A DNA stretch of 52,754 nt, taken from a virus. The position numbers were made by a program, and so were the translations under genes. The notes beneath the pieces were generated by a model that searched no databases, had not been told where the DNA came from, and was given only the letters and a program-made list of their open reading frames with translations. Every line of letters starts with the position of its first letter. The first letter of the stretch is position 1. Where the stretch lies: the IMG/VR virus record IMGVR_UViG_3300028902_000450; one strand, 5' to 3'. Positions 4,267 to 52,754 of the stretch are shown here, one piece after another.

Positions 4267-4283
4267 GTCTTTTTGTTGTCTAG

Positions 4284-13408: not shown

Positions 13409-13632
13409 TGTGCCTCTCGCTTGACGGAAGTCGGTCGCGCGTTGGCGGGGGACTGCGTCGCCGCGCGTTCGACGCGCTGCAATTTCCGCGCGTCCCAAAT
13501 GAGCCAGCCGTCCAAAAAGTCGTCGAGCATGACAATCTGCCCGCCGCTGTAGAGTTCTTTGACGGCGCGCGTCCGACCGGATGGGTCGCCCTTGCGCCGC
13601 ACAACGTCCCCGACCTTCAAACTAGTTTGCAT
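13405..13632 (-). CDS. Small protein (75 aa), SH3-like N-terminus
   Basis: MQTSLKVGDVVRRKGDPSG... is the final segment of the long ORF 13405-14172. ATGA coupling to the replication gene. Confidence 0.55.
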   Translation of the reverse strand: MQTSLKVGDVVRRKGDPSGRTRAVKELYSGGQIVMLDDFLDGWLIWDARKLQRVERAATQSPANARPTSVKREAQ

Positions 13633-14147: not shown

Positions 14148-14435
14148 GACGCGCGACACTCCCGACGCTCACGCGGGCGAGGGATGGTCACTGTAGACCG
14201 CGTTGGTGTTGGCAGCACCGCGCGGTCATTTTTATTTATCGGGGGGGCAACATCGCCGTCCGTGATGGTGTTTTCGCAGACACGCACATCACGGAACGCG
14301 TTTCGTGATGCAATGTCACTCCCCCGACAGTTTGGGCAAACGCTGCCGCGCGGTCCGCCTGACCGCCGCGTTGACGTTTCCCCTGACGCGACATGTTCCG
14401 GTGTTGCCGGTCATGCGTCGCGTCATTTTTTTGCG

Positions 14436-23049: not shown

Positions 23050-24843
23050 CTATTTCGATTTTTTGTTGGTCGCGGCGTTCGTCGTCTTGGGGGCGGGTTT
23101 GACTTTGTCCTTTGCCTTTGCTTTCGACGCCGCTGATTCCGGCTTTGCTTTGCTCACGGGTGCGGAAGCGTCGGGTTCGGCTTGTGGCGTCTCATCGGGT
23201 TTCGGCGTTTCGTTCGTCGGCGTGGGTTTGTCCGCTTTCGGTTGAACCGTATCGCCGATGTGCATGGGCATCATCACATGGCGATAACGCGGCAGGGCGA
23301 TATAGCCCGGCGTGCTCGACGTTGTGACGCGCAGGGCGATGGGGTGCGCACCATTGTTGAACGCCGCCGCGCGCAGCGCATCGCTCAAGAAATCCGCGTT
23401 GAACGCAATCTCGAAATTTTCTTCGGGCTGCCACGCGGGGTCGAAGGTTGCGGGAATGATTTCGGCGACGTCGCCCGTGTCCGCGCTCGATGCGGCGACG
23501 AGCACATGGTCGGCTTTGACCGTGAGCCGCGCGCAGTGCGTTTCGCTGATGAGGTTCACGCGTTGCAGCGCCGCCAGCGCGGGTTCGACGGCGAGCGGGA
23601 GATACGGCAGCGACGGCACAGGGTTAGGAACGATTTGATTAAAGTCGGGGAAATTGCCGTCAATCAGATTCATGCGTAATCCGCCCGCGTTCGTTTCCAC
23701 CTGAACCATGCCGTATTCCAACACGCCTTTCTTGTCGAGTTGGAGATGAAAGAGGAACTGAATCGGTTTCGCCTCGTCGGTCGCGATTTTCAACGTTTCC
23801 GCGAACACTTTGGCGGGCACAATCAGACCGAGTGAATCGAGCGGTTGGTCAGCGTCGAAATGCAGGGTCACATCGCGTTCGAGCACCGCGAGCCGAAACC
23901 CATCGGCGCTGCTGAATTCAAGCGTCACGTTTTGCCCGGACGTGGCGGGGAATTTGCCAGAGACATAGACACCCTGCAAGACTGGGCGCGCATCGTCGGT
24001 TGCCACACACGGCACAATGCGCTTGACGATTTCGTTCACCGCCTCGTGCGTCATATCGGCACCGACGACGATAGATTTGCCGTTGAACGCGGTCGCGGGG
24101 GGAAACTCGCTGGCATCCAGAGACTTGAGCGACACATTCAAACGTCCCGCTTCGATGCGCGTGAGGTAGGTTTTGGCGTCGGTTGTGAGCGTGACCAACA
24201 CATCGTCGTTCACGCGCGCCAGCAAGTCGCCGAGCAAATGCGGCACGCACACTTTGCCTGGACGCAGCACTTTGGCTTGCGCGAGATGCCAAAGGGTGAA
24301 ATTCAAATCGGTTGCGGTAAAGCGCAGCGACTCGGCGTCGAGCGCTTCGATGAGGATGTGCGAGAGCACGGGAATGCTCGACCCTTTGCCGCGCGCCCGG
24401 TCCACGTTTTTGAGCGCGGCTTTCAGCGCGCCGGCGCGTATCACAATCTGTTGTCCCGTTTTTTCGGATGGGACCGATTCCGCTTGGACCGTGGGCGCGG
24501 GCTTGTCCGCAGACAAGTTCGCCGTGACATCCGCCGCGAGTTCGAGCGCGGCGTCAATTGCGGCTTGGTCGCGTGCGGCTTGTTCCATCTCCGCATTCTG
24601 GACGAGCAATTCCGCTTTGGCGGTGATGATTTGTTCTTCCGTTTGCGGCGTTGGTTTCGGCGTGATTTGTTTGCGCGCCGCGCGTTTGGCAGGCGCTTGC
24701 GGTTTCGGAGCGGGTGCGATGGGCGTTTGCGCTTTTGCGGTCTTGACGGATTTGGTCTTGACGACATTTGTCTTGGCGTTCGCGGATTTGGCTTGTATGG
24801 CTTTAGCGATGCGCGCGTTTTCTTTTTGCAGTTTGGTATTCAC
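23050..24843 (-). CDS. dnaN: DNA polymerase III beta sliding clamp homologue with Lys/Ala/Pro-rich N- and C-terminal extensions (597 aa)
   Basis: The core (IPVLSHILIEA..LRFTATDLNF...ASEFPP...DDARPVLQGVYV...EFSSADGFRLAV) is colinear with bacterial DnaN. The tails contain KTKSVKTAKAQTPIAPAPKPQAPAKRAARK and SKAKAKDKVKPAPKTTNAATNKKSK. GTG start after AGGAGACCCAAA. Confidence 0.8.
   Translation of the reverse strand: MNTKLQKENARIAKAIQAKSANAKTNVVKTKSVKTAKAQTPIAPAPKPQAPAKRAARKQITPKPTPQTEEQIITAKAELLVQNAEMEQAARDQAAIDAALELAADVTANLSADKPAPTVQAESVPSEKTGQQIVIRAGALKAALKNVDRARGKGSSIPVLSHILIEALDAESLRFTATDLNFTLWHLAQAKVLRPGKVCVPHLLGDLLARVNDDVLVTLTTDAKTYLTRIEAGRLNVSLKSLDASEFPPATAFNGKSIVVGADMTHEAVNEIVKRIVPCVATDDARPVLQGVYVSGKFPATSGQNVTLEFSSADGFRLAVLERDVTLHFDADQPLDSLGLIVPAKVFAETLKIATDEAKPIQFLFHLQLDKKGVLEYGMVQVETNAGGLRMNLIDGNFPDFNQIVPNPVPSLPYLPLAVEPALAALQRVNLISETHCARLTVKADHVLVAASSADTGDVAEIIPATFDPAWQPEENFEIAFNADFLSDALRAAAFNNGAHPIALRVTTSSTPGYIALPRYRHVMMPMHIGDTVQPKADKPTPTNETPKPDETPQAEPDASAPVSKAKPESAASKAKAKDKVKPAPKTTNAATNKKSK
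24502..24517. repeat. Dyad motif copy CTTGTCCGCAGACAAG
   Basis: In dnaN (minus strand), in frame as LSADK. Confidence 0.9.
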
Positions 24844-26303: not shown

Positions 26304-27233
26304 TTATTGTTTTTTGCCTTTGGCTTTGTTCGGTGGAAATGCCATGCCGTAGCGCAGCATCGAATCGTACAACGTGCCGACAATCGGCGCTGCCACGTCG
26401 CGCAGGTGCGGGTCGTCGCTGGTGAGAAGCATTTGCAGGTACGCCGCGAACGATTCGCCGATACCGCCAACCTTTTTCATTTCGGGTAAGCGTTCGTCGA
26501 GCGGAAAACGCCGCGCGTAATTGGCGTTGCGAATGGCATTGCGTTCGTCCACCGCTTGTTGAATCGCCGAGTTGGGATTGGTGAAGGATGCGAGGTCAAA
26601 GAGCGTTTCATTGGCTTGCTCGGCGAGCAAATTGCCGCAGAGGATTTTGAATTCTTTGAGCACCGGCTTGGCGGTCCCGGTGAGATAGGCGAGCGCGATG
26701 CGCTGGCGGTTGGTGTCAAGCGGCGCCATCACTTCGCCGAAGGTATCGGTGATTTGTTTCGTGCGAATCAATTCTTGCACGTCAGGTATGAGATTGAGCA
26801 GCGATAAACGCGCGGCGACGTGCTTGGCGTTGCGGTTCGATTTCTCGGCGGTCTCGCTCACCGTCCAGCCGAATTTTTCCATCCGCTTTTTGTACGCCGT
26901 CGCTTCATCTATGGGGTCAATGTCGACGCGATGCACATTTTCCGAGAGCATGATGGCAGCGGCTTGTTCGTCGTTGTATTCGCGGATGATGGCGGGAATG
27001 GTTTGCCAACCGAGCGAACTCACGGCGCGGAATCGGCGTTCGCCCGCGACGATTTCAAATTGATAGGGTCCGTCCGTAAACGGACGGACAGTTATCGGCT
27101 GTGCGAGCCCGTTGGCTTGAATATCGGCGGCGAGCGCGTTCAGGGCATTCGCGTCGAAGACGGTGCGGTCGTTGTCGCCGGCGCGAATGACTTTCACCGG
27201 CACATTGTTTATTTGGTCGAGTTTCGTTTTCAT
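26304..27233 (-). CDS. parB: ParB/Spo0J-family protein (309 aa)
   Basis: ParB N-domain with IVAGERRFRAV and LSENVHRVDIDPIDEA, followed by an HTH region. The start follows AGGAGACCC. Confidence 0.8.
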   Translation of the reverse strand: MKTKLDQINNVPVKVIRAGDNDRTVFDANALNALAADIQANGLAQPITVRPFTDGPYQFEIVAGERRFRAVSSLGWQTIPAIIREYNDEQAAAIMLSENVHRVDIDPIDEATAYKKRMEKFGWTVSETAEKSNRNAKHVAARLSLLNLIPDVQELIRTKQITDTFGEVMAPLDTNRQRIALAYLTGTAKPVLKEFKILCGNLLAEQANETLFDLASFTNPNSAIQQAVDERNAIRNANYARRFPLDERLPEMKKVGGIGESFAAYLQMLLTSDDPHLRDVAAPIVGTLYDSMLRYGMAFPPNKAKGKKQ

Positions 27234-27275
27234 GGGTCTCCTGACATTTCGCCTTTGGAAATGAAACAACCTGCG

Positions 27276-28218: not shown

Positions 28219-29064
28219 ATGAATCAATTTCGCGACCGCATCATAGAGGTCAAAAAAGTAAAGTCACGGGAACTACTCGACAATGAGGGGAATTGGCGAT
28301 TGCATCCGGACGCGCAGCGTGAGACCATGACCGGCGTTTTGAATGAAGTCGGCAAAGCGGATGTGTTGCTCGCGTATTATTCCGCGCGCAACAACAATCA
28401 ATTGACGCTGTTTGATGGTCACTTGCGGAAAGCGTTGGATGCGGACGAAGAGTGGACCGTCGCCATCACCGATTTGAGCGACGCCGAAGCGGACAAGATG
28501 CTGCTGGTGCTCGACCCGCTCGCGGCGATGGCGGAAATGAATAAAGCGCGCCTGTTGGATTTAACAGACCGCGTCAACACAGATGATTTGATGGTGCGCG
28601 AGCTGCTACGCAAAATGGAACTCGAAGCGCAGCGCATCGGCGAAGAAGACGAGGACGGCGAAGGCGGCAAAAAAGAAAAGACCGGTCCCGCCGCGATGGA
28701 GTTGATGCCGTTCGAGCATTACGATTATGTGCTGCTCATGTTCAAGAATGAGTTGGATTGGTTGGCTGCCGTTGACACGCTCGGTCTGGAGCGACGCGCC
28801 GATTTGCGCAAGACGAACAAGATTGGCTTGTGTCGCGTTGTCAGCGGCAAACAAGTCATCGAGCGCATACAACAGTTGGAATTTCAGAACGCGAATTACG
28901 CGAATCAAACGAAACCCGCGAAAGAAGAACCAACGCATGAGAATAGTCATACCGAGCCGGAAACGCGCGGACACGATAGCGAACCGGACGCTGAAACTGT
29001 TTCCCGACGCCATCGTGACAGTGGACGAACGCGAGCGCGACGAGTACAGAAACGTCACGCCTAA
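28219..29064 (+). CDS. ParB-like N-terminal (nuclease/NTPase-type) domain protein without a methyltransferase module (281 aa)
   Basis: NWRLHPDAQRETMTGVLNEVGKADVLLAY...LFDGHLRKAL...LSDAEADKMLLVLD is the ParB-N type usually seen fused to phage DNA methylases. The 3' end overlaps the next gene by 128 nt. Confidence 0.6.
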   Translation: MNQFRDRIIEVKKVKSRELLDNEGNWRLHPDAQRETMTGVLNEVGKADVLLAYYSARNNNQLTLFDGHLRKALDADEEWTVAITDLSDAEADKMLLVLDPLAAMAEMNKARLLDLTDRVNTDDLMVRELLRKMELEAQRIGEEDEDGEGGKKEKTGPAAMELMPFEHYDYVLLMFKNELDWLAAVDTLGLERRADLRKTNKIGLCRVVSGKQVIERIQQLEFQNANYANQTKPAKEEPTHENSHTEPETRGHDSEPDAETVSRRHRDSGRTRARRVQKRHA

Positions 29065-29659
29065 TTTAGTTTTGCATCCACCGTTTGAATCTCTTGCGGA
29101 GATTTTGAATTGGATTGTGGACGCGTTCGACGATGAAACGCTCGTCGTCGCGGAGGACGACATCACGCGTTGCGTCTCGTTTGTTGGGAACAATGTGCGC
29201 GTGTTCCGCAATCCCGCCGAGGTACTCCAGATCGTCGAGAATTGCGCGGAAGCGGCGCGCGGCGCAGGCGCGCGGATGTTTGGATTCACCGATTCCGCAA
29301 ACCCAAAACATTTCAAACCACAAGACCCGCTCTCATTCGTTGCGAACCTCTACACGATTTACGGGTACGTGGGGAAGCAGGTGCGGAGTGACCCGAAACG
29401 CAGATTGTTCCGCGACATGGACACATCGCTGACTGAGTTGATGAACAATCGCATTGTGTACTGCGACACGCGTTTTCATTTTGAATCCGTCGCGCCGCTG
29501 CGACAAGGCGGCGGTAACGCAGTCAATCGGGCGCGCGAGGATTTAGCAGGCGCGATGGATTTCATGCAGCGCAAATGGGGTCATTACGTCCGCGCAGGCA
29601 AGAGCGGAGATTTGGTGTTGAATGTGGGGGGAATCAAACGCCGCCAAGCCAAAGTATGA
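28937..29659 (+). CDS. GT-A / nucleotide-diphospho-sugar-transferase-like protein, paralogue 1 (240 aa)
   Basis: N-terminal MRIVIPSRKR, a DxD-like VVAEDDI about 85 aa later, and conserved blocks shared with 29656-30426. Confidence 0.5.
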   Translation: MRIVIPSRKRADTIANRTLKLFPDAIVTVDERERDEYRNVTPNLVLHPPFESLAEILNWIVDAFDDETLVVAEDDITRCVSFVGNNVRVFRNPAEVLQIVENCAEAARGAGARMFGFTDSANPKHFKPQDPLSFVANLYTIYGYVGKQVRSDPKRRLFRDMDTSLTELMNNRIVYCDTRFHFESVAPLRQGGGNAVNRAREDLAGAMDFMQRKWGHYVRAGKSGDLVLNVGGIKRRQAKV

Positions 29660-33060: not shown

Positions 33061-33741
33061 ATGGACGACGCTACCCAACCGTGGGCGCGTCAAACGAAAG
33101 AACCCGCCCTTTGGTTTGACCGCTTTCAACGCTACCTGCTGCTCGGCGTGACCCGTTCGGTGTATCGCGCCTATATGGTTGAGCGCATGGAAACCGCGCG
33201 CACGGTCACGCAAATTAAAAAATTGAACGCGCAGGCATCGCACCGCACCGGCTTGCCGCAGTCGTGGCGAGCGCAATCGAAACGATGGAATTGGAGCGAA
33301 CGCGCGCAGCAGTTCGATGAAGCGGAGCGCACCAAACGATACGCGGCATATCAGGCGCGCGCCGACGAGATTCTGACCAGCGGTCTGGCACTCCAATTCG
33401 CGCGCATCGAGGAATTGAAACAACTCGCCGAGCTCTTGCGCGACGAAGTGCGCGACGAGAATAAACGCTGGCTGCCTGACGCCAAACAAATCGGCGCCGG
33501 AGAATTTGCGGAACGCGTGGACATTGTGCGATTTAATGCGCCACTCGTACAGCAATTGCGCGAGACGATTGCAGACATTGCGATTGAAAAGGGCGAGCGC
33601 ACGCACGGTGTCAAACTCTCGGGCAAAGTCGCCGTCGCGCAGGTCTCGCTCGACGATGTGCTTGCTGCTGCGGACGCAGTCAAGCAGGATGAGCAATCCA
33701 TTTTGAAACAAATCGGCAAACCTTCCGAACAGAATGAATGA
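33061..33741 (+). CDS. Small-terminase-like protein, paralogue 2 (226 aa), adjacent to terL
   Basis: WFDRFQRYLLLGVTRSVYRAY...GLPQSWRAQSKRWNWSERAQQFDEAER. It overlaps the terL start. Confidence 0.65.
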   Translation: MDDATQPWARQTKEPALWFDRFQRYLLLGVTRSVYRAYMVERMETARTVTQIKKLNAQASHRTGLPQSWRAQSKRWNWSERAQQFDEAERTKRYAAYQARADEILTSGLALQFARIEELKQLAELLRDEVRDENKRWLPDAKQIGAGEFAERVDIVRFNAPLVQQLRETIADIAIEKGERTHGVKLSGKVAVAQVSLDDVLAAADAVKQDEQSILKQIGKPSEQNE

Positions 33742-35159
33742 CCAAAATCGAAATTCGCGAAGGTCTCAAGTGTCAAAAATCGGCGCTGTATTTTATTTAT
33801 CAGTACGTCCAGATTTATGACGCGACGCGGCGGGAATGGGTCCCGTTTCATTTGTATCCCGCGCAAGTTGAAGTACTGAATGCGCTCCTTTCCAATTCGC
33901 TGCTCGTGATTTTGAAAGCGCGTCAACTCGGAATGACATGGCTGGTGCTCGCGTTCGTGTTGTGGTCCATGCTCTTTCATCCTATCGTCACCGCATTGCT
34001 CTTTTCCAAGCGCGATGACGAGGCAACCTATCTGCTCGGCGTCGAACGCCTCAAAGGGATGTATGAACGGCTGCCGCAATTCTTGAAAGCGCGGAGCATC
34101 GAAGTAGACAACGACCATGAGTGGCTGCTGTCGCAGGGTTCGATTGCGCGGGCGTTCCCGACGAGCGCGGGGGATTCCTACACGGCGAGCATTGTGTTTG
34201 TGGACGAAGCCGATTTGGTCCCCGACCTCAATCGGCTGATGAATTCGGCAAAGCCGACGATTGATGCGGGCGGCAAATTGATTTTGCTCTCGCGTGTGGA
34301 CAAGACGAAACCGCAGAGCGAATTCAAAAACATCTACCGCGCGGCAAAGGCAGGCACAAACGGGTGGTATCCGATTTTTTTGCCGTGGACGGTGCGCCCG
34401 GAGCGCACGCCCGAATGGTACGAGCAACAAAAGCGCGACATTCTCGCCCGCACAACCGCGCTCGATGACCTGTATCAGCAATATCCGGCGACCGATACCG
34501 AAGCGTTGTCACCGAACACACTGGACAAACGCATTGCGGCATTGTGGCTGGAGCAATGCTACAGCGAACACTTGAGTTTGTCCGCAGACAAGTTGCCCGA
34601 AGGCGCGCCGAGCATTCCGGGTCTGACGATTTACAAACTGCCCGAACCAAATCGCAAGTACGTCATCAGCGGCGACCCGGCGGAAGGCAATCCGACATCG
34701 GATGATTCGGCGAGCGAGGTGTTGGACAAGGACACGGGCGAAGAGGTTGCGAGTCTCGCGGGGAAATTTCAACCCGCCGTGTTCGCGGCGCACATTGACA
34801 CGATTGGAAAATTTTTCAATCGCGCTGACGCGATGATAGAGCGCAACAATCATGGACACGCGGTCTTGCTCTGGCTGCGCGACAATTCAAGTTTAAGAAT
34901 TTTGACAGGATTCGACGACAAGAACGGCTGGCACTCGACGGTGCTGGGCAAGACGATGTTATACGACGCGTGCGCGGACGCGTTCCGCAATAAAGAGACC
35001 ATGCTGCATAACTTCACGACGTTCACACAATTGAGCATGATTGAGGGCTCGACCCTGCGCGCGCCGGAGGGCGAGATGGACGACCGCGCGGATGCTTACG
35101 CGTTGGCACTCGTGGCGCGTGTGCGCGCGGGCAGTCGCGCGAGCGTGGATTGGGTGTGA
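33738..35159 (+). CDS. terL: Terminase large subunit (473 aa)
   Basis: LYPAQVEVL...LVILKARQLGMTW (Walker A variant), IVFVDEAD (Walker B), and the nuclease-region motif GEMDDRADAYALA. Confidence 0.85.
   Translation: MTKIEIREGLKCQKSALYFIYQYVQIYDATRREWVPFHLYPAQVEVLNALLSNSLLVILKARQLGMTWLVLAFVLWSMLFHPIVTALLFSKRDDEATYLLGVERLKGMYERLPQFLKARSIEVDNDHEWLLSQGSIARAFPTSAGDSYTASIVFVDEADLVPDLNRLMNSAKPTIDAGGKLILLSRVDKTKPQSEFKNIYRAAKAGTNGWYPIFLPWTVRPERTPEWYEQQKRDILARTTALDDLYQQYPATDTEALSPNTLDKRIAALWLEQCYSEHLSLSADKLPEGAPSIPGLTIYKLPEPNRKYVISGDPAEGNPTSDDSASEVLDKDTGEEVASLAGKFQPAVFAAHIDTIGKFFNRADAMIERNNHGHAVLLWLRDNSSLRILTGFDDKNGWHSTVLGKTMLYDACADAFRNKETMLHNFTTFTQLSMIEGSTLRAPEGEMDDRADAYALALVARVRAGSRASVDWV
34578..34592. 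repeat. Dyad motif copy TTGTCCGCAGACAAG
   Basis: In terL, in frame as LSADK. Confidence 0.9.
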
Positions 35160-35163
35160 TGCA

Positions 35164-35481
35164 ATGAGTACATTGCCTACATTGCCAAACGAAACAACAT
35201 TCCAAGTTGCGCCATTGCAGTTGGTGTATGCGGTCTGGATTCGTGGACACGGCTGGCTGAAAGAAAAAGACGACGACGCGCAAACCACGTTCGTGGCGTT
35301 CAGCCCCGAAGTCGCCGAATCCGCCGCGCGCTTGTGGGGCAGCGACGCAGAGGTATTGCCGTTCGACCAATCATTGCTCGACTTGGAACAAAAGTTTTTG
35401 CGGCGCGAACAAGAATTGCAGGCACGACGCGGCGTTATCGCGTGGTTAATCGCATGGCTGCACACTCCGCGCGATTCGTGA
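35164..35481 (+). CDS. Hypothetical protein (105 aa)
   Basis: Internal ATG (MSTLPTLPNE) of ORF 35041-35481. Confidence 0.5.
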   Translation: MSTLPTLPNETTFQVAPLQLVYAVWIRGHGWLKEKDDDAQTTFVAFSPEVAESAARLWGSDAEVLPFDQSLLDLEQKFLRREQELQARRGVIAWLIAWLHTPRDS

Positions 35482-35510
35482 CATCGGGTGCGCAGACATG
35501 CGAAAACAAA

Positions 35511-37724
35511 ATGGCATATTGGGCTGACGTTTCCAATCAATTGAATCGCGCGCAGCGGCAAGCGCAGTACGTGACGACGATGGCGGGCTCGTGGGCGGGC
35601 GGTCCGGTCAGCGACCCGGACCCATCGCTGTACGCGAACCAGGCGCGGCTCATGCAGCAGCTGTCGTGGGTCTATTCCGCGATTTCGCTCGTGTCGCAGT
35701 CTGCCGCGTCTCTCGCACAATTCCAAGTCCTGCAGCTGCGCGCCGAAACCAAAAAGCCGATTGTCAATCACGCGTTTGAACAACTCTTGCGCGCGCCGAA
35801 TCGTTATCAGTTCGATTCGCAGTTTGAGTTTTTCGAGGCGCTATTCGGTTTTTTGAAACTGAGCGGCAATTGCTATTTGTATCTGAACGCGCTTTCGCCC
35901 GAGCTGCCGCCTGCCGAGATTTATATTTTGCGCCCCGACCGCGTGATGGTCGTCCCGGACCGTCAAACCTTTGTGCGCGGTTACGTGTTCAATGTGGACG
36001 GCGCCGAGCTCGCGTTCGACCGCGATGAAATTGTGCATATCAAGGCGTGGCATCCGCTCAACGATTGGTATGGTCTCACCGCGATTGAGGCGCTTTCAAT
36101 GGCTGCCGAGACCGACCTGAAAGAAGCGGGTTGGAATAAGAACTTTTTCGACAAACAATTTGCGAAACCACAGGGCGCGCTCGCGTACAGCGACATGGTC
36201 AACGATACCGACTGGGACCGCATGAAAACCGAAGCGAAAGAAGAGCATGGCGGGACACAGCGGCGGCTGATGATGCTGCGCGGCGCGGGCAAGGGCGGCG
36301 TGCAGTGGCTACAGATGGGTTTGTCGCAAAAGGACATGGAATTCATCACCGGTCGCCAATTCAACAAAGAGGAAATTTACCAGGGACTTGCGCCGGGTCT
36401 CTTGCAAATGCTTGACAAAAATTCGACGGAAGCAAACAGCATCGCAGGCGAAAAGGTTTTCCGTGAATACACGCTATATCCGCTCTTGAAACGTGTGCAA
36501 GAAAAATTCACCGCGAGAATTTTACCGCGTTATGGGGACGCCAGCGCGGACGGCAGCGGGCTTGTCGGGGAGTTTGATGAAATTCGCGCGCGTGACCGCG
36601 TGCTCGACATGCAGGAACGCCAAGCATACGAACGCGTTCATACCATCGCTGAAGTGCGCGCGAAATTTGATAACGACGCGCCGCTGGGCGACGAACGGGA
36701 TGATCTGCTCGTCGCGCAGGCGCAATCGTTCAATCCGAACGCGTTTGCGATGACCACTACAAACGCGTGGAACGCGAACACGACGACCGACGCCTCGGAT
36801 GAGTCGGATGTAATCATCCGCACATCCGCCACCATGCCGCCGCAAGCTCCCAGTGTCCGCAACGCCGAGAACGCGGACGAAGCAGGAGACATGATTGACA
36901 AGAACGCGAGCAAAGACGAAGCAAAGGCAGGCAATCAAGACGGCTTGATGATTGCGCTCGCACTCCCGACGGGCGCGGCGCTCACGCTGCACCAACTCGC
37001 GCAAGAGACGTTCGGCGAAAACGCGGATGTGACTCCTTCCGATGAAATGCACATCACCCTTGCCTATTTTGGCAGCGCGGAACAAATGAATGTCTCGCGC
37101 GAAACGCTGACCGCGCTCGTGCGCGCGTTTGCTGCCGAACATTCGCCCATCAATGGCATGGTGAGCGGCGTCGGACGATTTACGCAAGTGGATGCCGACG
37201 GACGCAGCGCGTTCTATGCGTCGTTTGATTCGCCCATGCTGCCGCGGCTGCAAAGCGATTTGATAGAACTGCTCGACGGCGCGGGCGTGTCTGTGGACAA
37301 GACGCATGGTTTTACGCCGCACATCACGCTCGCGTATGCTCGAATTGGAGAACATTCGGACGCGAATTTTGATTTAGCGCAGTTGCATACGCCCAACACG
37401 CAAATCACCTTTGATGCCGTGACGCTCGCGTGGGCGGGAGAGTGGGACGCGTTCGCGCTGGGCGCAATTCCGATGCTCCTGCCGCATCCAAATGAGCCGA
37501 GCGACGAACAAAAGGCGTTCGCATCCGACATTGCCGCGTGGGAACGCAAAGCATTGAAACGAGTGCGCGAGCACGGCGCACTCGCCGATGCGCTCGAATT
37601 CAAATCGGACGCGCTCGCGCCGGCGTTGCTCCATTCCATTCGCGGCGCGCTCGAAGCGGCGACAACTGCGTTAGAAGTCAAAGCGATTTTTCAGAACGCG
37701 CGCGCGTGGCATTCCTATCCGTGA
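35511..37724 (+). CDS. Portal protein (HK97 family) fused to a C-terminal 2H phosphoesterase (LigT-like) domain (737 aa)
   Basis: Portal core: NHAFEQLLRAPN...GNCYLYL...IVHIKAWHPLNDWYGLTAIEAL...GGVQWLQMGLSQKDMEF. C-terminal domain with two HxT motifs, EMHITLAYFG and TPHITLAYAR. Start at MAYWADV. Confidence 0.8.
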   Translation: MAYWADVSNQLNRAQRQAQYVTTMAGSWAGGPVSDPDPSLYANQARLMQQLSWVYSAISLVSQSAASLAQFQVLQLRAETKKPIVNHAFEQLLRAPNRYQFDSQFEFFEALFGFLKLSGNCYLYLNALSPELPPAEIYILRPDRVMVVPDRQTFVRGYVFNVDGAELAFDRDEIVHIKAWHPLNDWYGLTAIEALSMAAETDLKEAGWNKNFFDKQFAKPQGALAYSDMVNDTDWDRMKTEAKEEHGGTQRRLMMLRGAGKGGVQWLQMGLSQKDMEFITGRQFNKEEIYQGLAPGLLQMLDKNSTEANSIAGEKVFREYTLYPLLKRVQEKFTARILPRYGDASADGSGLVGEFDEIRARDRVLDMQERQAYERVHTIAEVRAKFDNDAPLGDERDDLLVAQAQSFNPNAFAMTTTNAWNANTTTDASDESDVIIRTSATMPPQAPSVRNAENADEAGDMIDKNASKDEAKAGNQDGLMIALALPTGAALTLHQLAQETFGENADVTPSDEMHITLAYFGSAEQMNVSRETLTALVRAFAAEHSPINGMVSGVGRFTQVDADGRSAFYASFDSPMLPRLQSDLIELLDGAGVSVDKTHGFTPHITLAYARIGEHSDANFDLAQLHTPNTQITFDAVTLAWAGEWDAFALGAIPMLLPHPNEPSDEQKAFASDIAAWERKALKRVREHGALADALEFKSDALAPALLHSIRGALEAATTALEVKAIFQNARAWHSYP
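37287..37301. repeat. Degenerate dyad GTGTC-TGTG-GACAAG (13 of 15)
   Basis: In the portal 2H domain, same frame (VSVDK). It may be coincidental. Confidence 0.4.
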
Positions 37725-37749: not shown

Positions 37750-38424
37750 ATGGCTGACTTTGCAAATCGTTCGGACTGGGAAGCGCAACTCGCCCGCGCG
37801 CTGGCACGTTTGCAGCAGCGCGAGTTGAAATTATTGCTGGACGCGCTGGGCGACCCGCCAGACCTTAATAATTTGCATCCCGAATTTTGGAATGAATTTT
37901 CAACATCGCTCAAGGGCGAATTGATTCCGGTGCTCGAAGGAATTTTTTTAGATTCGGCGGAGCAGCTGCTTGGAACGACGAGCGTCGGCGTGGATTGGGC
38001 GCTCATCAACGAGCAGGCGGCGCGGTGGGCAGAGAGTTACGCGTATGACCTGGTCCGCGGCATCACCGACAACACGCGTTCGGCGTTGCAGCAAAAAGTG
38101 GGCGCGTATTTTCGTAATGGCTTGACGCAGCAAGACCTGCGTGATTCGCTCCAAAATTTATTTGGACCCGTACGCGCCGAGATGATAAGCGTGACTGAAG
38201 TCACTCGCGCGGCGGTGCAAGGCGAATTGGCAATTGTGGACGGACTCAAACCCTACGGCATCGAAATGATTCCCGTGTGGCAGACCAACGCCGATGATAT
38301 CGTGTGTCCCATCTGCGCGCCGCGCAATCGCAAAAAGCGCGGCGACGGTTGGTACGATTTTCCACCGGCGCACCCGCGCTGCCGCTGTTGGATCAATCAT
38401 ACTTACGCGGAGAACGCGAAATGA
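37750..38424 (+). CDS. MuF / SPP1 gp7-like minor head protein (224 aa)
   Basis: C-terminal DDIVCPICAPRNRKKRGDGWYDFPPAHPRCRCWI is the Phage_Mu_F signature. Confidence 0.8.
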   Translation: MADFANRSDWEAQLARALARLQQRELKLLLDALGDPPDLNNLHPEFWNEFSTSLKGELIPVLEGIFLDSAEQLLGTTSVGVDWALINEQAARWAESYAYDLVRGITDNTRSALQQKVGAYFRNGLTQQDLRDSLQNLFGPVRAEMISVTEVTRAAVQGELAIVDGLKPYGIEMIPVWQTNADDIVCPICAPRNRKKRGDGWYDFPPAHPRCRCWINHTYAENAK

Positions 38425-38463: not shown

Positions 38464-38610
38464 ATGCTCGCGTCTTACTATCTGAATCTCGTCGAGCACG
38501 GGTTTCCGCCGTACATGGCAATCGAACTTGTGCGCGACTTGCAACGGATGTATTGGGAGCGCGCGCTGGCTGGCGGCGCGACGGAAAAAGAGAATGTCCA
38601 ACGCGATTGA
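38464..38610 (+). CDS. Possible small protein (48 aa)
   Basis: Own translation: MLASYYLNLVEHGFPPYMAIELVRDLQRMYWERALAGGATEKENVQRD. It overlaps the next start. Confidence 0.35.
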   Translation: MLASYYLNLVEHGFPPYMAIELVRDLQRMYWERALAGGATEKENVQRD

Positions 38611-39103
38611 ACTCAACGGCTTGAGTGACGTGCTCGCCCAAATCAAAAAGGTTAGCGATTTGGGCGCGGTCAACGCGGCGCTCACCGAAGCGGCGGTCTA
38701 TCTGAAAGGCAAGGTAGACGAGTACCCGCCGTCGAAATCGCGTCCGGGACGCATTTCGCTGCGCACGCGGCGTCCGATGGGGTGGTACAAGCGTGGCACA
38801 GGTTGGATGTCGCCGATTGTGCGGAACGGGCGCGCCGTGCGCTACGTGAATTATCGCGCGACGAGCGAAACACTGGGGCGCAAGTGGACTATCGCCTCGC
38901 AGGGACCGCTGACCGTCGTCGTCGGCAACAACGTTTCTTATGGTCCCTATGTGCAAAGCGCGGTCAAGGTGGGGGGCAAGGGACCGCAATCGCGGCTCAT
39001 GGCTGCATACGGATGGAAAACGGTCGAGGACGTGGTCAAGCAAGAGGAATCGGCAGTGGTCAAACAAATCGAAGCGCGTTTGACCAAACAATTCGGAGGA
39101 TAG
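38594..39103 (+). CDS. Hypothetical virion-module protein (169 aa)
   Basis: MSNAIELNGLSDVLAQIKKV... is the internal ATG of ORF 38528-39103. Confidence 0.55.
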   Translation: MSNAIELNGLSDVLAQIKKVSDLGAVNAALTEAAVYLKGKVDEYPPSKSRPGRISLRTRRPMGWYKRGTGWMSPIVRNGRAVRYVNYRATSETLGRKWTIASQGPLTVVVGNNVSYGPYVQSAVKVGGKGPQSRLMAAYGWKTVEDVVKQEESAVVKQIEARLTKQFGG

Positions 39104-39107
39104 CAAG

Positions 39108-41570
39108 ATGAAATATCACATCGTCGAGCAAGACGGAAAATTTTGTATCGCCGCGCAAGACAGCGACACGCCCATCAACGACATGCGCTATGACGACAAG
39201 GACGCCGCGCAAACCGCGCTGGACGCGCTGATGGAGAAAGCGAACGCGTCGCAAGCGAGTGCGAACGAATCCAAAAGCGTTGACCTTGAAGCGGAATTGC
39301 AAAAAATCCGCGAAGCGTTTTACGCGCTCTATCCATCGCAGTACGAATCCAGCGCGTTTGAGATGTGGATTGTCGCAATCCTCGACGACGCGCTCATCGT
39401 CAAAGCCGGGACCCAAAAATATCGCGTGCCGTACCTCAAGACCGACACGGAGATTGCATTTGCGCCGCGCGACCAATGGACGCCGGGCGAAATGGTGCAA
39501 GAGTTCGTGCCCGATGTTGTGGGAGATGACCCGCTCGAAGTCAAAGCGCTGCCCGATGGGCGCATCCGCGCGTATGCGTTGGTGTGGGGCGATGAACACA
39601 ACACTGACCTGTCGCAGCAAAAAGATTTCTTTACACCACGTACTGATTTTTGGGACAAACAATTGCCGATGCCGCGCCCGTTGACCTACCATCACGGCTG
39701 GAATGCAGAGACCAAAGCGATGCCCGTCATTGGCAAGATCGATGAATTCGGCGACGACGACATCGGGCGCTGGTACATCGCCGAACTTGATAAAGCGCAT
39801 CGCTACGAAAAAGCCGTCCGCGCGTTGATTCAAAAACACGCGTTGAAATCATCGGTGGATTCGATACCGCAGTACGCGCGGCGAGAAGCCAAAGCCAACG
39901 GCGCGCACGAAATTCAAGTCTATCCGTTATTCGGCGTCACCTTGACGCCTACGCCGATGGAACCGCGCTTGTTCCCGGCGGAAGAACTCAAAGCGTTTTA
40001 CAAATCTATCGGCGTTGAACTGACGCTGCCGGAGGCATCTGCGGAGACGCAACCGCGTGCAGATGCGGCTAGCAAGGACGATGCCAAGCATTCAAACTCT
40101 GACGGAGCAAAACCGTCAATGGAGGCAAAAGCCATGACCAGAGAAGAAATGCTCGCCCTCATTCGTGAAGAAAAAGAGCGCGAGCAAAAAGCCGCCGAAG
40201 CCAAAGCCGACGAAGAAAAACGCATCAACGACTTGGCAGAGGCGAAAGCGCAAGAAAAATTGAACGCCCTCGCGAAGGAACGCCGCATCCCGTTGTTTTC
40301 CGCCGAAGCAAAATCGCGCGTCAGCGTCGTATCGAAATACGACGACATGGCGCTCGCCGACCTCGCGTTCTTGGCGGTTGTGCGCGGCGAAGCCAAAGCC
40401 ATCGGCAAGAGCCACGGCATTGACGAGGAACTCGCCCGCGTTCTCGCCATGAAATCCATCAAAGCCGTCGAGCAAGGCAAACTCGAAGTGAAAGCGATGG
40501 AAGATTTTTTCCCCGATGTGCCGATGGAAGCCAAAGCCAACGAAGCGATGCAGTCCACGCTGGCGAGCTACGGCGACGAATGGGTCCCGACGAACTATTC
40601 CTCGCAGCTGTGGCAGGTCGTGCGCGCCAAAGCGCGTTTGCTGCAAGGCGGTTTCATCCCGGAGCAAGAAATCCCCAAGGGCTACGAGAGCGATACCATC
40701 CCGCTCGAAGGTTCGACGGATTTCACCTTCTACAACGTCGGTCAGGCGGCGAATGAAGATTCGACGATGAAGGACATTCCCGCAACCATCAATTCGTCCA
40801 AGTTCAGCACTGACCAACGCGTCATCACCGTCGGCAAACTCGGTGCGCGCGGCTACATTCCCGGCGAGTTGGATGAAGATTCGATTGTGGATTACATCCC
40901 TGAAGCGCGCCGCAAGTTGGAAGCGCAGATGCCGCAGGAATTGGATTTCATCTTTTTCAATGCGGATGACACCGCAGCGACCGACAACATCAACGGCAAT
41001 GGCACGCCGGTTTCGGGTGCGGATTACACCGTGTTCAAGGGCATCATTCGCAATGCGCTCAAGAATGGTTCAGGCGCAAACGCGTATGACATGGGTGCGG
41101 CAATGACCAGCACCAAAGTGCGCGCGTTGTACCAAACTCTGGGCACGGACGGTTTCTATGTCGCCGACGATCCGCAGGCATGCCGCGTGTTCACGGATTA
41201 CTTGACCTGGTGGGCGGTGATGGGCTTGAGCGATTTGCTCACCGTCGCGAACGCGGGGCAAGATGCAGCGACCATCGTACGCGGCGCCAATCCCGACGAA
41301 GGCATTTTGATTCACGGCGTGCGCTGGTACCCCAGCGTCGGCGTGAAAAAAGCGCAGGCGACGGGCGTGCGTCACGGCACCGAAGGTTCGAACACCAAAG
41401 GGCGCGCCGTCTTGGTGCGCGGCGACCAATGGAAGATTCGTTGGAAGCGGCGCGCGAAATACGAGACGGTCCGCAATCCCGACAACGACACGACCAAAAT
41501 CATCGTCACGCTGCGCGCCGGCATCGGGTATCGCGACACCGAAGCGTCCGCCATCGGCTACAACATCTAA
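39108..41570 (+). CDS. Prohead protease - scaffold - major capsid protein fusion (820 aa, HK97-type)
   Basis: Protease-like region (IRAYALVWGDEHNTDLSQQKDFF...LTYHHGW...VIGKIDEFGDDDIGRWYIAEL...LKSSVDS...LFGVTLTPTPMEPR), then a Lys/Glu/Ala coiled coil, then an HK97-fold-like C-terminal ~400 aa. Confidence 0.7.
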   Translation: MKYHIVEQDGKFCIAAQDSDTPINDMRYDDKDAAQTALDALMEKANASQASANESKSVDLEAELQKIREAFYALYPSQYESSAFEMWIVAILDDALIVKAGTQKYRVPYLKTDTEIAFAPRDQWTPGEMVQEFVPDVVGDDPLEVKALPDGRIRAYALVWGDEHNTDLSQQKDFFTPRTDFWDKQLPMPRPLTYHHGWNAETKAMPVIGKIDEFGDDDIGRWYIAELDKAHRYEKAVRALIQKHALKSSVDSIPQYARREAKANGAHEIQVYPLFGVTLTPTPMEPRLFPAEELKAFYKSIGVELTLPEASAETQPRADAASKDDAKHSNSDGAKPSMEAKAMTREEMLALIREEKEREQKAAEAKADEEKRINDLAEAKAQEKLNALAKERRIPLFSAEAKSRVSVVSKYDDMALADLAFLAVVRGEAKAIGKSHGIDEELARVLAMKSIKAVEQGKLEVKAMEDFFPDVPMEAKANEAMQSTLASYGDEWVPTNYSSQLWQVVRAKARLLQGGFIPEQEIPKGYESDTIPLEGSTDFTFYNVGQAANEDSTMKDIPATINSSKFSTDQRVITVGKLGARGYIPGELDEDSIVDYIPEARRKLEAQMPQELDFIFFNADDTAATDNINGNGTPVSGADYTVFKGIIRNALKNGSGANAYDMGAAMTSTKVRALYQTLGTDGFYVADDPQACRVFTDYLTWWAVMGLSDLLTVANAGQDAATIVRGANPDEGILIHGVRWYPSVGVKKAQATGVRHGTEGSNTKGRAVLVRGDQWKIRWKRRAKYETVRNPDNDTTKIIVTLRAGIGYRDTEASAIGYNI

Positions 41571-43715: not shown

Positions 43716-44034
43716 TGAAGTAATTTTGCGCTACGTCGGCGACGGCGCGTTTCTGAACGGCGTGCCCGCGCGCGATTTGACGCAAGCAGACATCGAGCAA
43801 TGCGGTCACAGCGTCGAGCAGCTGCTCGCGTTCCAACCGCGCGTGTACGACGACGCGTCATCACGCACACGCGAATCGAGTGACTCTATGCGTGATGACG
43901 CGTCGGAACGGACAGATGCGCCGCTGGTCGAGTCATCGGTCGCGGTGGTTAATTTGACAGACGGTGTATCGGAGCAAGAGGCGCATGTTGCTGGGCGCGC
44001 GCTCCGTCAACGCCGCAAGGAGAATGAAGCATGA
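43708..44034 (+). CDS. Hypothetical protein (108 aa, GTG start)
   Basis: ORF overlapping both neighbours by a few nt. Confidence 0.5.
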   Translation: MADEVILRYVGDGAFLNGVPARDLTQADIEQCGHSVEQLLAFQPRVYDDASSRTRESSDSMRDDASERTDAPLVESSVAVVNLTDGVSEQEAHVAGRALRQRRKENEA

Positions 44035-45002
44035 TAACTGAACTCTTGCGCGTCCAAGTCGGAAAAGAAACGACGTGGGGCACAGGCGTCACCGATTCCG
44101 CGAAATTGATGGGCGTGTCGGACATCAATTTACAGCCCGGCGTCGCCGCAAAACGATTCAAGGAATTGCGCGGCAACCTCGCGCCCGCTCATCTCGCTGC
44201 GCTGACCAAAGTCGCCCCGCAGGGCAGCATGTCGCAAATCGCGACCTACGAGGATATTTGCTATTTGCTCGAAGCGATGTGCGGCGTCGCGACGCCATCG
44301 GGGGCAGGTCCCTACGTGCGCACGGGCGGCGCGCCCACGACCGTTGCGGTTGCCACGCCGCGCTTCATGACGGCTTTCTATGACGACCCGGGCGGCGCGG
44401 GCACGTACAAAGCCGCGGGCGTCATTCCATCGAAACTGACCATCAGCGGCAAGCAGAGCGAGGAGATGATGCTGAAAGCGGACCTGCTTGCCAAGCAAAT
44501 CACGACGGGCTCGCCCGCCTCGCTCAGCGACCGCAGCGTGAGTGTCGTGATGGGCAGCGACACGAAACTTTACGTGGACGCGTGGGGCGGCACCATCGGC
44601 ACAACCGAAATGGCGACCATGTCGTATTCCTACGAGCTCATGCTCGATGCCCAGCGCGTGCTCAAGCACTATCTCGGCGCGCTTACGCCCGGTAGATATG
44701 TCGAGCGCAAGTGGGACGGCGAACTCAAGATGATGCTCGAATTCAACGCGACGAGCAAAGCGTTTCTCGACGCCCTGATTGCGCCCGCGCTGTTTCAAAA
44801 GCAAGTGCGCATCAAAGCCACGTCCGACGCGAATCATATCGTGCAGTTGGATTTCGCGGGGACCGCCGAAGACACCCCCGCACTCTTTACCGATGACGAC
44901 GGCGTTTCGACGCTTGAATTCACTTTGAAAGGAACGTATCACTCGACATTGGCGAATTGGTTCGCGTACTCTGTGACCAATCAAGTGTCGGCGCTGCCAT
45001 AA
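44031..45002 (+). CDS. Major tail (tube) protein, putative (323 aa)
   Basis: It lies immediately upstream of the chaperone/tape-measure genes. Size and beta-rich composition fit. Confidence 0.6.
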   Translation: MITELLRVQVGKETTWGTGVTDSAKLMGVSDINLQPGVAAKRFKELRGNLAPAHLAALTKVAPQGSMSQIATYEDICYLLEAMCGVATPSGAGPYVRTGGAPTTVAVATPRFMTAFYDDPGGAGTYKAAGVIPSKLTISGKQSEEMMLKADLLAKQITTGSPASLSDRSVSVVMGSDTKLYVDAWGGTIGTTEMATMSYSYELMLDAQRVLKHYLGALTPGRYVERKWDGELKMMLEFNATSKAFLDALIAPALFQKQVRIKATSDANHIVQLDFAGTAEDTPALFTDDDGVSTLEFTLKGTYHSTLANWFAYSVTNQVSALP

Positions 45003-50566: not shown

Positions 50567-52754
50567 AGTCTTGACCGTTCCCTACGAAGCATCGCTGCCC
50601 TCATTTGGCAGTCCCGCTGCGCGCAAAAACGTGCGCCCGCGGGACTTTGTGCTGCAAGGCAACAACGGCGGGTGGGTTACGATACCCAGCGCCGAGTACG
50701 AACTCGATAAAAAGAATGGCATCGTGCGCCAGCGGTCTGAGGACAGCGCGGGCAATGACGTGGATTGGGAAGCGTATGTGTCGTATCGCTGGAGCGGCGT
50801 CATTGTCACCAGCGGCTCACGCGCGACGATTACGAATGAGGCGTTGACGTTCGCCGATGCGGACTATGCGGACATCGAAGCAGGACCCGACGAACAAATC
50901 CAAGAAAGCTTAGCGAGCGATTCCGTCGAGCAAGACGACAACTCGAGCGACGAATCGCAAAGTGATAATTACGTCGCAGGCGTCAGCGGGTATTTCATTG
51001 ACCGCGTGACGGGCAACGCCGAATTCAACAACATCACCGCGCGCGGCACGATTGTTGCGACGGCTGGCAGCATTGGCGGGTGGACCATCACCGCGACCGC
51101 ATTGTACAAAGATACAGGCGTGGATGCGACCAGCGCGGGCATGTCGCCGAGCGATTATCCGTTCTACGCGGGCGCGACCTATGCCAACCGCGCGAACGCG
51201 CCGTATCGCGTGCTGCCGGATGGTTCGGTCTTTGCAACGCAGTATTTCAAAATCGGTTCCAATGACCTCGTTTTCGACAATGCGACCGACCAGCTCGTGT
51301 GGCTCAAAGGTCTTTCGTTCGACCGTCTCGACGTGGCAACGACGGGCACATTCAATCTCGACACGCAAGGACGCAGTTGGATTCGTCTAACCGGCACGGC
51401 GACGGCGAAAACCATCAACTATATCAAAAAGCCGTCGAACATTGCCGGGCAAATCCTCATCATCAAGAATGACGCGAATCCCGTTACCGTCACTAAGACC
51501 AGTCAACTGACGCTCAAGAACAATCAAGGTTCGCCGCCCGCCGGGTATGCGGCGATGTCGCTGTATGGCAAGAATGTCGTGCTGAAAAGTTTCGGCACCG
51601 TCACGCTCATCTATGACAGCGCGAACGCGCGCTGGACGCTCGCGGCGGTGGTCAAAGCGACCAAAACCAAAAACAACAGTGAACTTTCGGAAGAGGGTTA
51701 CGACGAGGATGTAAGCGTAACGTCTGCGCTGCCGACTTCGACGAGCGCGCGCGCGGGAACGGATGTGCTCACGCTTTCGGCGGGCACACTCGCGGTGGAT
51801 ATGGACATTCCTGCATCGTCCACGTGGACGATGGAATTGGTCACGCCCGCGGACGGAACGACGTGGCTGTTTGCGAACGGCGACACGGCGTACATGCGCA
51901 GCGGCGCGAATGAAATCTATTTCACCGTCGCGCGCGACGTGAACGACGGCGTCACGCAAACGTATACCTGCACCTTTGCCAATGGCACACGCCCACTTTC
52001 GTTTGCCGCAGGCAGCGGCGTATTGAATTACGGCGCGAGCGGGCAGGGATTCTTGTACGAAACGGTCGTGTCGGGTTTGCCCTATATGAGCGTGCGCACG
52101 CATAGCGGTTCGCCATGGTCCCCCACCGAGCGCGTGCGGCTCGGCAGTTTGACCGGCATCACCGACCCGACGTTCGGCGCGCTGAGCGGGTATGGGCTTT
52201 GGACGGACAATGTCTATCTCACTGGCGCCATCAAGTCCACCAGCGGACAAATCGGCGGATGGAACATTGGCGCGTCATCGCTCACCGGCGGCAGCGCCAC
52301 GCTGCACAGCTCGGGGTATCTGCTGCTCGGCACATCGAATGACATCGTGCGGCTCGACGCTGCGGATGCCACCTATCGGCTGTGGATCGGCAATGCGACG
52401 GCGGCGAGCGCGCCGTTTCGTGTCACCAAAGCCGGTGCGGTCACGGCAAGCAACATTGACCTCGCAGGCGGTTCGGTGTCAGGGACGTTCACGGTCAGCG
52501 GAACGTTGCGCAGCGCGGCAAGTCCCAACGCGCGGTACGAGTTGACAGGCGCGGGCTTCAAATCGTATGACAGTGGTAACGTGCAGCGCACGCAGATTCT
52601 GAACGATGGTTCGGGCTGGCTCGGCTCGTCGTCGGTGTTTTCATGGACGGCAGCGGGAGTCGTTTCGCTCAACGGCAGCGCGGTGGTCGGCAACTCGTTG
52701 TCTGCGGACAAGGTGAGTTTTACCGCTCCGACGATTTCGGGTCTCACCCTCACC
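50559..52754 (+). CDS. Tail fibre protein, N-terminal 732 codons (continues at base 1 through the circular junction)
   Basis: The ATG at 50559 overlaps the upstream stop (ATGACTAA). No stop occurs to the window end. Repeated GGW.I....L modules. Not listed in the ORF track because it has no stop in the window. Confidence 0.8.
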   Translation, partial: MTKVLTVPYEASLPSFGSPAARKNVRPRDFVLQGNNGGWVTIPSAEYELDKKNGIVRQRSEDSAGNDVDWEAYVSYRWSGVIVTSGSRATITNEALTFADADYADIEAGPDEQIQESLASDSVEQDDNSSDESQSDNYVAGVSGYFIDRVTGNAEFNNITARGTIVATAGSIGGWTITATALYKDTGVDATSAGMSPSDYPFYAGATYANRANAPYRVLPDGSVFATQYFKIGSNDLVFDNATDQLVWLKGLSFDRLDVATTGTFNLDTQGRSWIRLTGTATAKTINYIKKPSNIAGQILIIKNDANPVTVTKTSQLTLKNNQGSPPAGYAAMSLYGKNVVLKSFGTVTLIYDSANARWTLAAVVKATKTKNNSELSEEGYDEDVSVTSALPTSTSARAGTDVLTLSAGTLAVDMDIPASSTWTMELVTPADGTTWLFANGDTAYMRSGANEIYFTVARDVNDGVTQTYTCTFANGTRPLSFAAGSGVLNYGASGQGFLYETVVSGLPYMSVRTHSGSPWSPTERVRLGSLTGITDPTFGALSGYGLWTDNVYLTGAIKSTSGQIGGWNIGASSLTGGSATLHSSGYLLLGTSNDIVRLDAADATYRLWIGNATAASAPFRVTKAGAVTASNIDLAGGSVSGTFTVSGTLRSAASPNARYELTGAGFKSYDSGNVQRTQILNDGSGWLGSSSVFSWTAAGVVSLNGSAVVGNSLSADKVSFTAPTISGLTLT
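52614..52754. repeat. Terminal direct repeat, right copy (identical to 1-141)
   Basis: Read directly. Confidence 0.95.

Follow-up and report, generated by a model that had tools for sequence, protein, structure and literature searches.

The viral stretch examined here, IMG/VR record IMGVR_UViG_3300028902_000450 (the window, meaning the whole 52,754 nucleotides (nt) of DNA that were analysed), encodes at 35511-37724 an HK97-type portal protein that carries a bona fide member of the 2H phosphoesterase superfamily, which by sequence and modelled fold belongs to a distinct subfamily nearer to LigT/ThpR than to the phage enzyme Acb1. The domain is an internal insertion between the portal core and a conserved portal tail, and the cassette has been mobile recently, being present in one and absent from another of close relatives. 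We tentatively read the cassette as a catalytically competent, LigT/ThpR-like 2H phosphodiesterase that would be incorporated into the head, injected and used in counter-defence, a reading that, judged from sequence and model, we place a little short of an even chance. The observation made in a preliminary description of this DNA is thus confirmed; its interpretation is partly supported and leaned too far towards Acb1. The gene is laid out as follows, with residues numbered on the 737-amino-acid (aa) protein.

35511-37724, plus strand: portal-2H fusion gene, a single open reading frame (ORF) of 737 aa plus stop, with PF04860 and PF13563
35511-36800, plus strand: HK97-type portal core, residues 1 to ~430, matched by PF04860, phrog_2662 and phrog_12 (portal)
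36801-36941, plus strand: Asn/Thr/Asp/Ala low-complexity linker, residues ~431-477, from sequence
36914-37512, plus strand: 2H cassette (~600 nt, ~200 aa), an indel against a relative without 2H
37050-37058, plus strand: first predicted catalytic H-x-T motif (H514-I-T516), in DEMHITLAYFG, invariant in 17 portal-2H fusions
37305-37328, plus strand: HGFTPHIT, the subfamily-specific HGF (H599) with the second motif, from alignment
37320-37328, plus strand: second predicted catalytic H-x-T motif (H604-I-T606), in GFTPHITLAYAR, invariant in 17 fusions
37512-37721, plus strand: helical C-terminal portal tail, WERKALKR...VKAIF...W..YP, residues ~668-737, helices from the AlphaFold2 model

The uninterrupted plus-strand frame extends over 35334-37724 (796 aa), from whose numbering 59 is subtracted to give residues of the 737-aa protein. 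Translation is placed at the ATG at 35511, where the homologs open with MAYW and from where the stored protein (P0041) also counts 737 aa; the longer GTG start at 35334 was rejected, as it overlaps a small upstream ORF that stops at 35481 and the homologs begin at MAYW. The portal core passes the Phage_portal threshold (PF04860, E 1.5e-43, 149.7 bits against a cutoff of 39.1, residues 112-444 in 796-aa numbering), has many invariant columns in the core alignment and follows the large terminase in a head module, which together assign it to the HK97-type portals; its match to TIGR01537 (E 5.6e-24) stays below the equivalog cutoff, at 84.9 against 112 bits. Among the PHROGs, portal families match the N-terminal part and 2H families labelled 'RNA ligase' the C-terminal part, and a 'head maturation protease' family with a 2H segment inside its profile is returned as well. 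The linker differs in length and sequence among 17 homologs (14-77% identity to the window) and is in most of them the least conserved region. The proposed succession of portal core, Asn/Thr/Asp linker and 2H domain in one ORF is accordingly borne out by PF04860, PF13563 and the combination of AlphaFold2 and Foldseek.

Membership of the domain in the 2H superfamily is supported by its profiles, its motifs and its predicted fold. It matches 2_5_RNA_ligase2 (PF13563, E 1.3e-14, 55 bits against a cutoff of 27, residues 569-700 in 796-aa numbering) and LigT_PEase (PF02834, E 7e-6, 26.5 bits against 23.3). The ThpR equivalog TIGR02258, its sole NCBIfam enzyme match, is found at E 1.6e-10 with 41.1 bits against a cutoff of 65.7, and the Acb1 family PF23474 at E 0.025 with 14.7 bits, under its gathering cutoff of 27. 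By these scores the domain is a related subfamily of ThpR/LigT and not a TIGR02258 equivalog. Both H-x-T motifs are present as first quoted; H514, T516, H604 and T606 do not vary across 17 aligned fusions, whose overall identity goes as low as 34%, and another 187 members of the subfamily (sets of 57, 73 and 57) keep the motifs with little or no change. Judged from these alignments, the predicted catalytic motifs are under purifying selection. The subfamily signature is HGFxPHITLAY (H130-G131-F132-x-P134-H135-I136-T137 in alignment A2, invariant or nearly so), with an extra, near-invariant histidine five residues ahead of the second catalytic one. The HGF (H599-G-F, nt 37305-37313) marks the phage head-associated 2H subfamily, and this third conserved histidine is missing in the aligned cyclic phosphodiesterases (CPDases) of D. 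radiodurans and P. horikoshii.

The structure prediction that the preliminary description had suggested was made for residues 470-737 with AlphaFold2 from a 57-sequence alignment, and gave a mean predicted local distance difference test (pLDDT) score of 90, with an alpha+beta domain that takes up model residues 9-180 and three helices behind it, at 196-266. The domain has the bilobed alpha+beta 2H fold, with template-modelling scores against the targets (TMt) of 0.6-0.7 to CPDases. Searched against the PDB with Foldseek, the model returned 59 matches at E<=1e-3, and all 50 that were listed are 2H proteins: the best is the D. radiodurans CPDase 5h7e (E 4e-9), followed by T. thermophilus TT0787, P. 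horikoshii PH0099 and E. coli LigT, while Usb1, AKAP18 and phage Acb1 come lower, at E 1e-5 to 1e-4 (Usb1 at ~1e-5 with 10-13% identity, the Acb1 structures 9q2g and 7t27 at 2e-5 to 6e-5). The subfamily profile run against PDB chains gives the same ranking, with CPDases at 2e-14 to 1e-9 and Acb1 chains at 0.12-0.92. Of the assignment first proposed, the 2H superfamily and the LigT relationship therefore stand, and the leaning to Acb1, which is sub-threshold (best CPDase profile match 2e-14 against 0.12-0.92), does not. A single-sequence phmmer search of the C-terminal 274 aa against the PDB produced a spurious designed-armadillo match only, and PADLOC, run on ten window proteins with the 2H domain included, had no match on that domain.

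The fold occupies residues ~478-650 (nt 36942-37460), so that the first motif comes before the last ~190 residues, in which both had been placed. More importantly, the domain is not the C-terminal one it was taken for. The last ~70-85 aa form a separate helical tail, outside the 2H fold, that belongs to the portal lineage; BLAST and hidden Markov model (HMM) comparisons identify it as the usual C-terminus of related portals without 2H (P0053, P0057, P0087, P0071), and because of this tail the 2H domain is understood as an internal insertion. In portal-MuF fusions the tail is placed between portal core and MuF, and in two proteins (P0068 and P0080) portal, 2H, tail and MuF form one in-frame polypeptide. 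The distance from core to tail was measured in the 61 of 120 listed portal relatives in which both are detectable: it spans 191-289 aa in all 20 with 2H and mostly 18-68 aa in the 41 without, four of which have 104-122 aa. At the nucleotide level, blastn against a 2H-less locus (L011) leaves nt 1403-2002 of the portal gene unmatched, with an 8-nt junction in their place and flanks at 72-80% identity; this locus and L012 are independent assemblies with the same gene order. Protein alignment also places 2H as an insertion, both with P0057 and with P0053, a 523-aa portal that has no 2H and is 73% identical to the window portal. Base composition was considered as a sign of foreign origin of the cassette and rejected, GC and third-position GC (GC3) being the same as in the flanks. 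Close portal relatives were seen to carry other cargo, namely an ATP-grasp domain (P0067), MuF with an ADP-ribosyltransferase (ART) toxin (P0111) and MuF with an intein (P0099), and two (P0059, P0060) have ~100 aa of unannotated extra sequence. The C-terminal region of these portals looks like a general cargo-swapping site.

The same architecture recurs well beyond the window. In the survey of portal genes, 20 of the 120 listed portal relatives carry portal plus 2H and are 33-84% identical to the window protein. Their sources are assemblies of NCBI, JGI, ENA and Logan, and one (P0080) lies in the genome of a Herpetosiphon geysericola isolate. Fused homologs of such diversity exclude an assembly or frameshift artefact, a possibility that had been raised at the outset. 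Identity of the 2H domain drops in parallel with that of the portal core, which fits the expectation of vertical co-inheritance under purifying selection. Close relatives of the window itself are few: the head module had no megablast match in 50,697 phage records, and scans with the full protein recovered one locus each in genome contigs (L007, from a Chloroflexi metagenome-assembled genome, MAG) and in viral contigs (L008).

A profile search of 1.84 billion cluster representatives (50% identity) retrieved 19,080 at E<=1e-3 and 2,060 at E<=1e-30, and the 130 new proteins among the best 150 matches were scanned against Pfam. About 40 of these 130 nearest representatives have a portal domain, from four portal families: PF04860 in 31, Portal_Mu in 4, SPP1_portal in 3 and the P23-45 portal barrel in 2. 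The same scan found MuF in 9, the XkdF-type protease in 11, the S78 protease in 5, DUF2213 in 7, an ART toxin in 4 and a Zeta toxin in 2, and the Acb1 family is reached at E<1e-3 in just 14. Of these proteins, 19 are recognised by a narrower core model; all 19 have 2H C-terminal to the portal core, and 17 have at least 49 residues beyond it. In cultured actinophages, a 2H gene labelled 'RNA ligase' or 'capsid maturation protease' directly follows portal, MuF or protease, and in Gordonia phage Chidiebere it adjoins a VIP2-like ART toxin; the best structural matches in BFVD are large actinophage structural or 'capsid morphogenesis' proteins. This 2H subfamily is thus systematically fused to, or found adjoining, portal, MuF and prohead-protease genes in many phages. 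The closest standalone 2H relatives (178-194 aa) sit on large phage-like contigs outside head modules, one of them (P0003, L001 6001-6543) among genes for a dCMP deaminase, a peptide deformylase, PspA and an AAA_33 kinase-like protein, and they indicate that the same subfamily exists as a free enzyme too. The actinophage 'phosphoesterase' genes of the literature were considered and set aside as unrelated right-arm genes.

Portal-2H fusions and their interpretation as counter-defence have already been published, in 2017 and 2022. Iyer, Burroughs, Anand, de Souza & Aravind (2017, J Bacteriol, PMC5512222) describe 2H-portal and 2H-MuF fusions among 'polyvalent' proteins and consider the domain as a Usb1-like RNase or as a degrader of the 2'-5' oligoadenylate or cyclic nucleotides of counter-invader systems. 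Iyer et al. (2022, Viruses, PMC9503650) take such fusions to suggest packaging in the head and injection against SMODS (second messenger oligonucleotide or dinucleotide synthetase), cyclic-mononucleotide and CRISPR signalling. The window protein has the architecture of a head-packaged effector fusion, that is, an effector enzyme covalently joined to portal or MuF, and it resembles the fusions of Iyer et al. in that 2H is joined to the portal of a terminase-portal phage, has no RNA-ligase partner and is given the same proposed role. It differs from them in representing a new lineage, a probably circular element of ~52.6 kb whose sole relative in the genome collection is the Chloroflexi MAG, in having 2H as an internal cassette present or absent between portals of 73% identity, and in encoding MuF as a separate downstream gene. 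The value of the window on its own is modest, as it confirms a published computational theme. Its new points, likewise modest, are that the insertion site is internal, that presence or absence of the cassette is a recent polymorphism, and that a broad range of portal families takes part.

With ThpR/LigT enzymes (5ldm, 5h7e, 1iuh, 1vdx), its best matches by fold and profile, the domain shares the structural positions of the H-x-T motifs and a similar domain size (~175 aa); identity, however, is only 18-21%, the TIGR02258 score is under the cutoff, the HGF ahead of motif 2 is extra, and the domain is embedded in a virion protein whereas ThpR/LigT are free cytoplasmic enzymes. Acb1 (T4 gp57B, FBB1 7t26/7t27, BCSR5 9q2g) is likewise a phage-encoded 2H fold with two catalytic histidines, which in the window domain are predicted, and provides the functional precedent for a 2H enzyme that can defeat nucleotide-signal immunity, in that case CBASS (an antiphage signalling system based on cyclic oligonucleotides; Hobbs et al. 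2022, PMC9117128). Acb1 is, in contrast, small, standalone and early or soluble; it has a C-terminal lid and is not fused to a head protein, and the window domain scores 14.7 of the 27 bits needed, with profile E-values of 0.12-0.92 to Acb1 chains. The actinophage 2H genes and 2H-prohead-protease fusions (phrog_2659, phrog_14859, phrog_18402) belong to the same subfamily and lie directly after portal, MuF or protease, for example in Gordonia phage Chidiebere (gp25), Arthrobacter phage Wheelbite (gp18) and Microbacterium phage ValentiniPuff (gp7), and they often adjoin the VIP2 ART toxin; unlike the window domain, to which they have ~30% identity, they are separate genes or fused to a protease or large MuF-type protein and are not inserted into a portal.

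Portals are dodecamers whose C-terminal crown side faces the capsid interior, and MuF/gp7-type and other internal head proteins exit the head at infection. With the C-terminal side of the dodecamer directed inward, each procapsid would enclose twelve copies of the enzyme on flexible tethers, located at the inner mouth of the channel and not, as had been suggested, at the DNA exit. The putative prohead protease encoded two genes downstream may cut the low-complexity linker and free the 2H domain, which could leave with other internal head proteins at DNA ejection and so reach the cytoplasm ahead of any phage gene expression. There it would hydrolyse 2',3'-cyclic-phosphate, 2'-5'- or 3'-5'-linked nucleotides or oligonucleotides, the putative targets being the signals of CBASS, type III CRISPR or related defences, or their RNA products, and host immunity would be blunted. 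The head association of the subfamily, expressed in its portal, MuF and protease fusions and in its position in actinophages, counts in favour of this proposal of an injected counter-defence enzyme.

Several points weigh against it. The domain scores below the Acb1 threshold and is closer to RNA-end cyclic phosphodiesterases, so that degradation of signals is not the only reasonable chemistry. The conserved tail behind 2H implies that release would need either an upstream cut that removes the tail too or two cuts, and a folded domain of 20 kDa must unfold to traverse the portal channel. The protease assignment is based on weak Foldseek E-values. Literature searches combining LigT or Acb1 with portal, or directed at virion mass spectrometry, found no experimental work on portal-2H proteins, and in the searchable literature no biochemical or virion-proteomic study of any such fusion was found. 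The tail hampers simple release and so lends some weight to action in the producer cell, either tethered or before assembly.

In its general form, this alternative states that the enzyme is never injected and acts late in the producer cell, as free portal monomers or on procapsids, where it would clear defence signals or cyclic-phosphate products triggered during virion assembly; all that the fusion would then secure is that the enzyme is made and located together with structural proteins. Mutants that escape type I CBASS are mapped to genes for prohead protease, capsid and tail, pointing to activation in late assembly (bioRxiv 10.1101/2023.05.21.541620); 2H is fused to exactly such late proteins, and the conserved tail after the cassette argues for an intact polypeptide. 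Standalone genes, however, could be co-expressed without burdening the portal, only 12 copies are present per assembled particle, and portal or MuF is also found fused, in parallel, to ART toxins, zeta toxins and RNases, which fits delivered effectors better (PMC5512222). We regard late action in the producer cell as unlikely overall. A more specific variant, which we consider distinctly improbable, takes the core-tail linker as a dedicated cargo swap site, where relatives have 2H, ATP-grasp or unknown inserts, with MuF behind the tail (alone or with ART toxin or intein), and in which 2H stays tethered as a local sink of defence nucleotides during assembly; the tethered domain would act where the assembling portal, protease and capsid proteins trigger immune sensors, and counter-defence would be coupled to assembly instead of injection.

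The remaining alternatives concern the chemistry of the domain. A ThpR/LigT-type 2',3'-cyclic phosphodiesterase could heal RNA ends, repairing tRNA or mRNA that host anticodon nucleases or toxin RNases have cleaved. The nearest solved relatives by fold and profile are indeed RNA 2',3'-cyclic phosphodiesterases, TIGR02258 is the one NCBIfam enzyme matched, and AAA_33 or zeta-type kinases occur as fusion partners in a few members of the subfamily, yet at 41 bits the domain misses the ThpR equivalog cutoff of 65.7. An RNA-repair operon was looked for and rejected, since the window ORFs scanned, all those of at least 230 aa included, gave no match to RNA ligase, RtcB or polynucleotide kinase, and according to Iyer et al. 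2017 (PMC5512222) this version of 2H is never linked to RNA ligases; RNA end-healing thus appears doubtful, to about the degree of late action in the producer cell. An injected Usb1/Mpn1-like RNase that attacks host RNA, by analogy to the PBECR RNases fused to MuF or portal, was raised in the same 2017 paper because the architectures resemble those of the PBECR-MuF and PBECR-portal fusions (PMC5512222). Usb1 structures are among the Foldseek matches (E ~1e-5) but are weaker than LigT/ThpR, at 10-13% identity; possible as it is, the RNase toxin has the weakest support when compared with producer-cell action and end-healing, and we think it very unlikely. For the last alternative, in which the domain is a structural or plug module without catalysis or the fusion arose as an artefact of assembly or frameshift, no positive evidence came up. 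Against it, the H-x-T motifs are invariant over deep divergence, twenty independent fused homologs are known from four data sources and one isolate genome, and GC and GC3 equal those of the flanks; by the sequence conservation it is effectively refuted, and we give it next to no weight.

Should the domain be virion-borne and injected, as we tentatively prefer, it would provide counter-defence activity before any phage gene is expressed, a timing advantage beyond the reach of free Acb1-type enzymes. The wider subfamily has ~19,000 clusters, with about a third of the nearest 130 representatives fused to a portal, and given a family of this size one biochemical characterization would annotate thousands of phage head genes. 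It would also show if phosphodiesterases are loaded in advance by phages to counter CBASS, type III CRISPR or RNase defences.

The head module around the portal gene runs from a small terminase-like gene through large terminase, a small ORF, portal-2H, MuF, a 191-aa ORF and an 820-aa protein to the tail genes, and this order is kept from the terminase onward in two relatives (L009 and L010).

33738-35159, plus strand: large terminase subunit, PF03237 at E 1.3e-4, at the start of the head module
37750-38424, plus strand: MuF / SPP1 gp7-like minor head protein, PF04233 at E 6.9e-5 and TIGR01641 at E 7e-4
38528-39103, plus strand: 191-aa ORF between MuF and the 820-aa gene, weak phrog_5 match at E 3e-5
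39108-41570, plus strand: 820-aa protein, read from fold and distant homologs as a putative prohead protease-scaffold-major capsid fusion
44031-45002: tail tube protein, among the tail genes beyond the 820-aa gene

The MuF gene opens 26 nt past the portal stop and matches the C-terminal part (490-706) of the portal-MuF family phrog_2662. The family matched by the 191-aa ORF, phrog_5, is the tail-completion or Neck1 family, and the position of the ORF is unusual for a neck protein. For the 820-aa protein there is no Pfam, PHROG or NCBIfam match; distant homologs of its C-terminal part carry the HK97 capsid domain PF05065, its middle is helical and rich in Glu, Lys and Ala, and H195, H196 and S249 are invariant. 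For the AlphaFold2 model of its first 331 aa (pLDDT 75), the proteases herpesvirus assemblin and T4 gp21 are the sole top matches in Foldseek, at E 0.01-0.05 and probabilities of 0.87-0.99. On this model, a very divergent prohead protease-scaffold-capsid fusion is plausible, and the fused prohead protease that the preliminary description had assumed has fold evidence that is weak but consistent. Rfam and tRNA scans found nothing.

Window positions 1-141 are repeated exactly at 52614-52754, a terminal 141-nt overlap that is probably the mark of a circular assembly, in which case the window is a complete circular element of ~52,613 bp and not a fragment. Related contigs in these collections have names of the type k141_.... 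Away from the head module, genes at 3265-4290 (minus strand), 14184-15431 (plus), 10172-12025 (minus), 26304-27269 (minus), 5890-7299 (minus), 12215-13498 (minus) and 23050-24843 (minus) encode two tyrosine integrases, two ParB-like proteins, a HerA/DUF87 ATPase, a DnaA_N-domain protein and a beta-clamp that is unusually long at 597 aa; the ATPase (5890-7299) has HerA/mad8-like matches in PADLOC. This set suggests a temperate or phage-plasmid-like lifestyle with partition and replication functions of its own. The plus-strand gene at 28727-29659 has a weak match to the TET-associated glycosyltransferase (TAGT, PF20691, E 2.5e-5, under the cutoff), which is kept in a relative (L009, 3953-4690), and going by this sequence match the gene may be part of a module for DNA base hypermodification.

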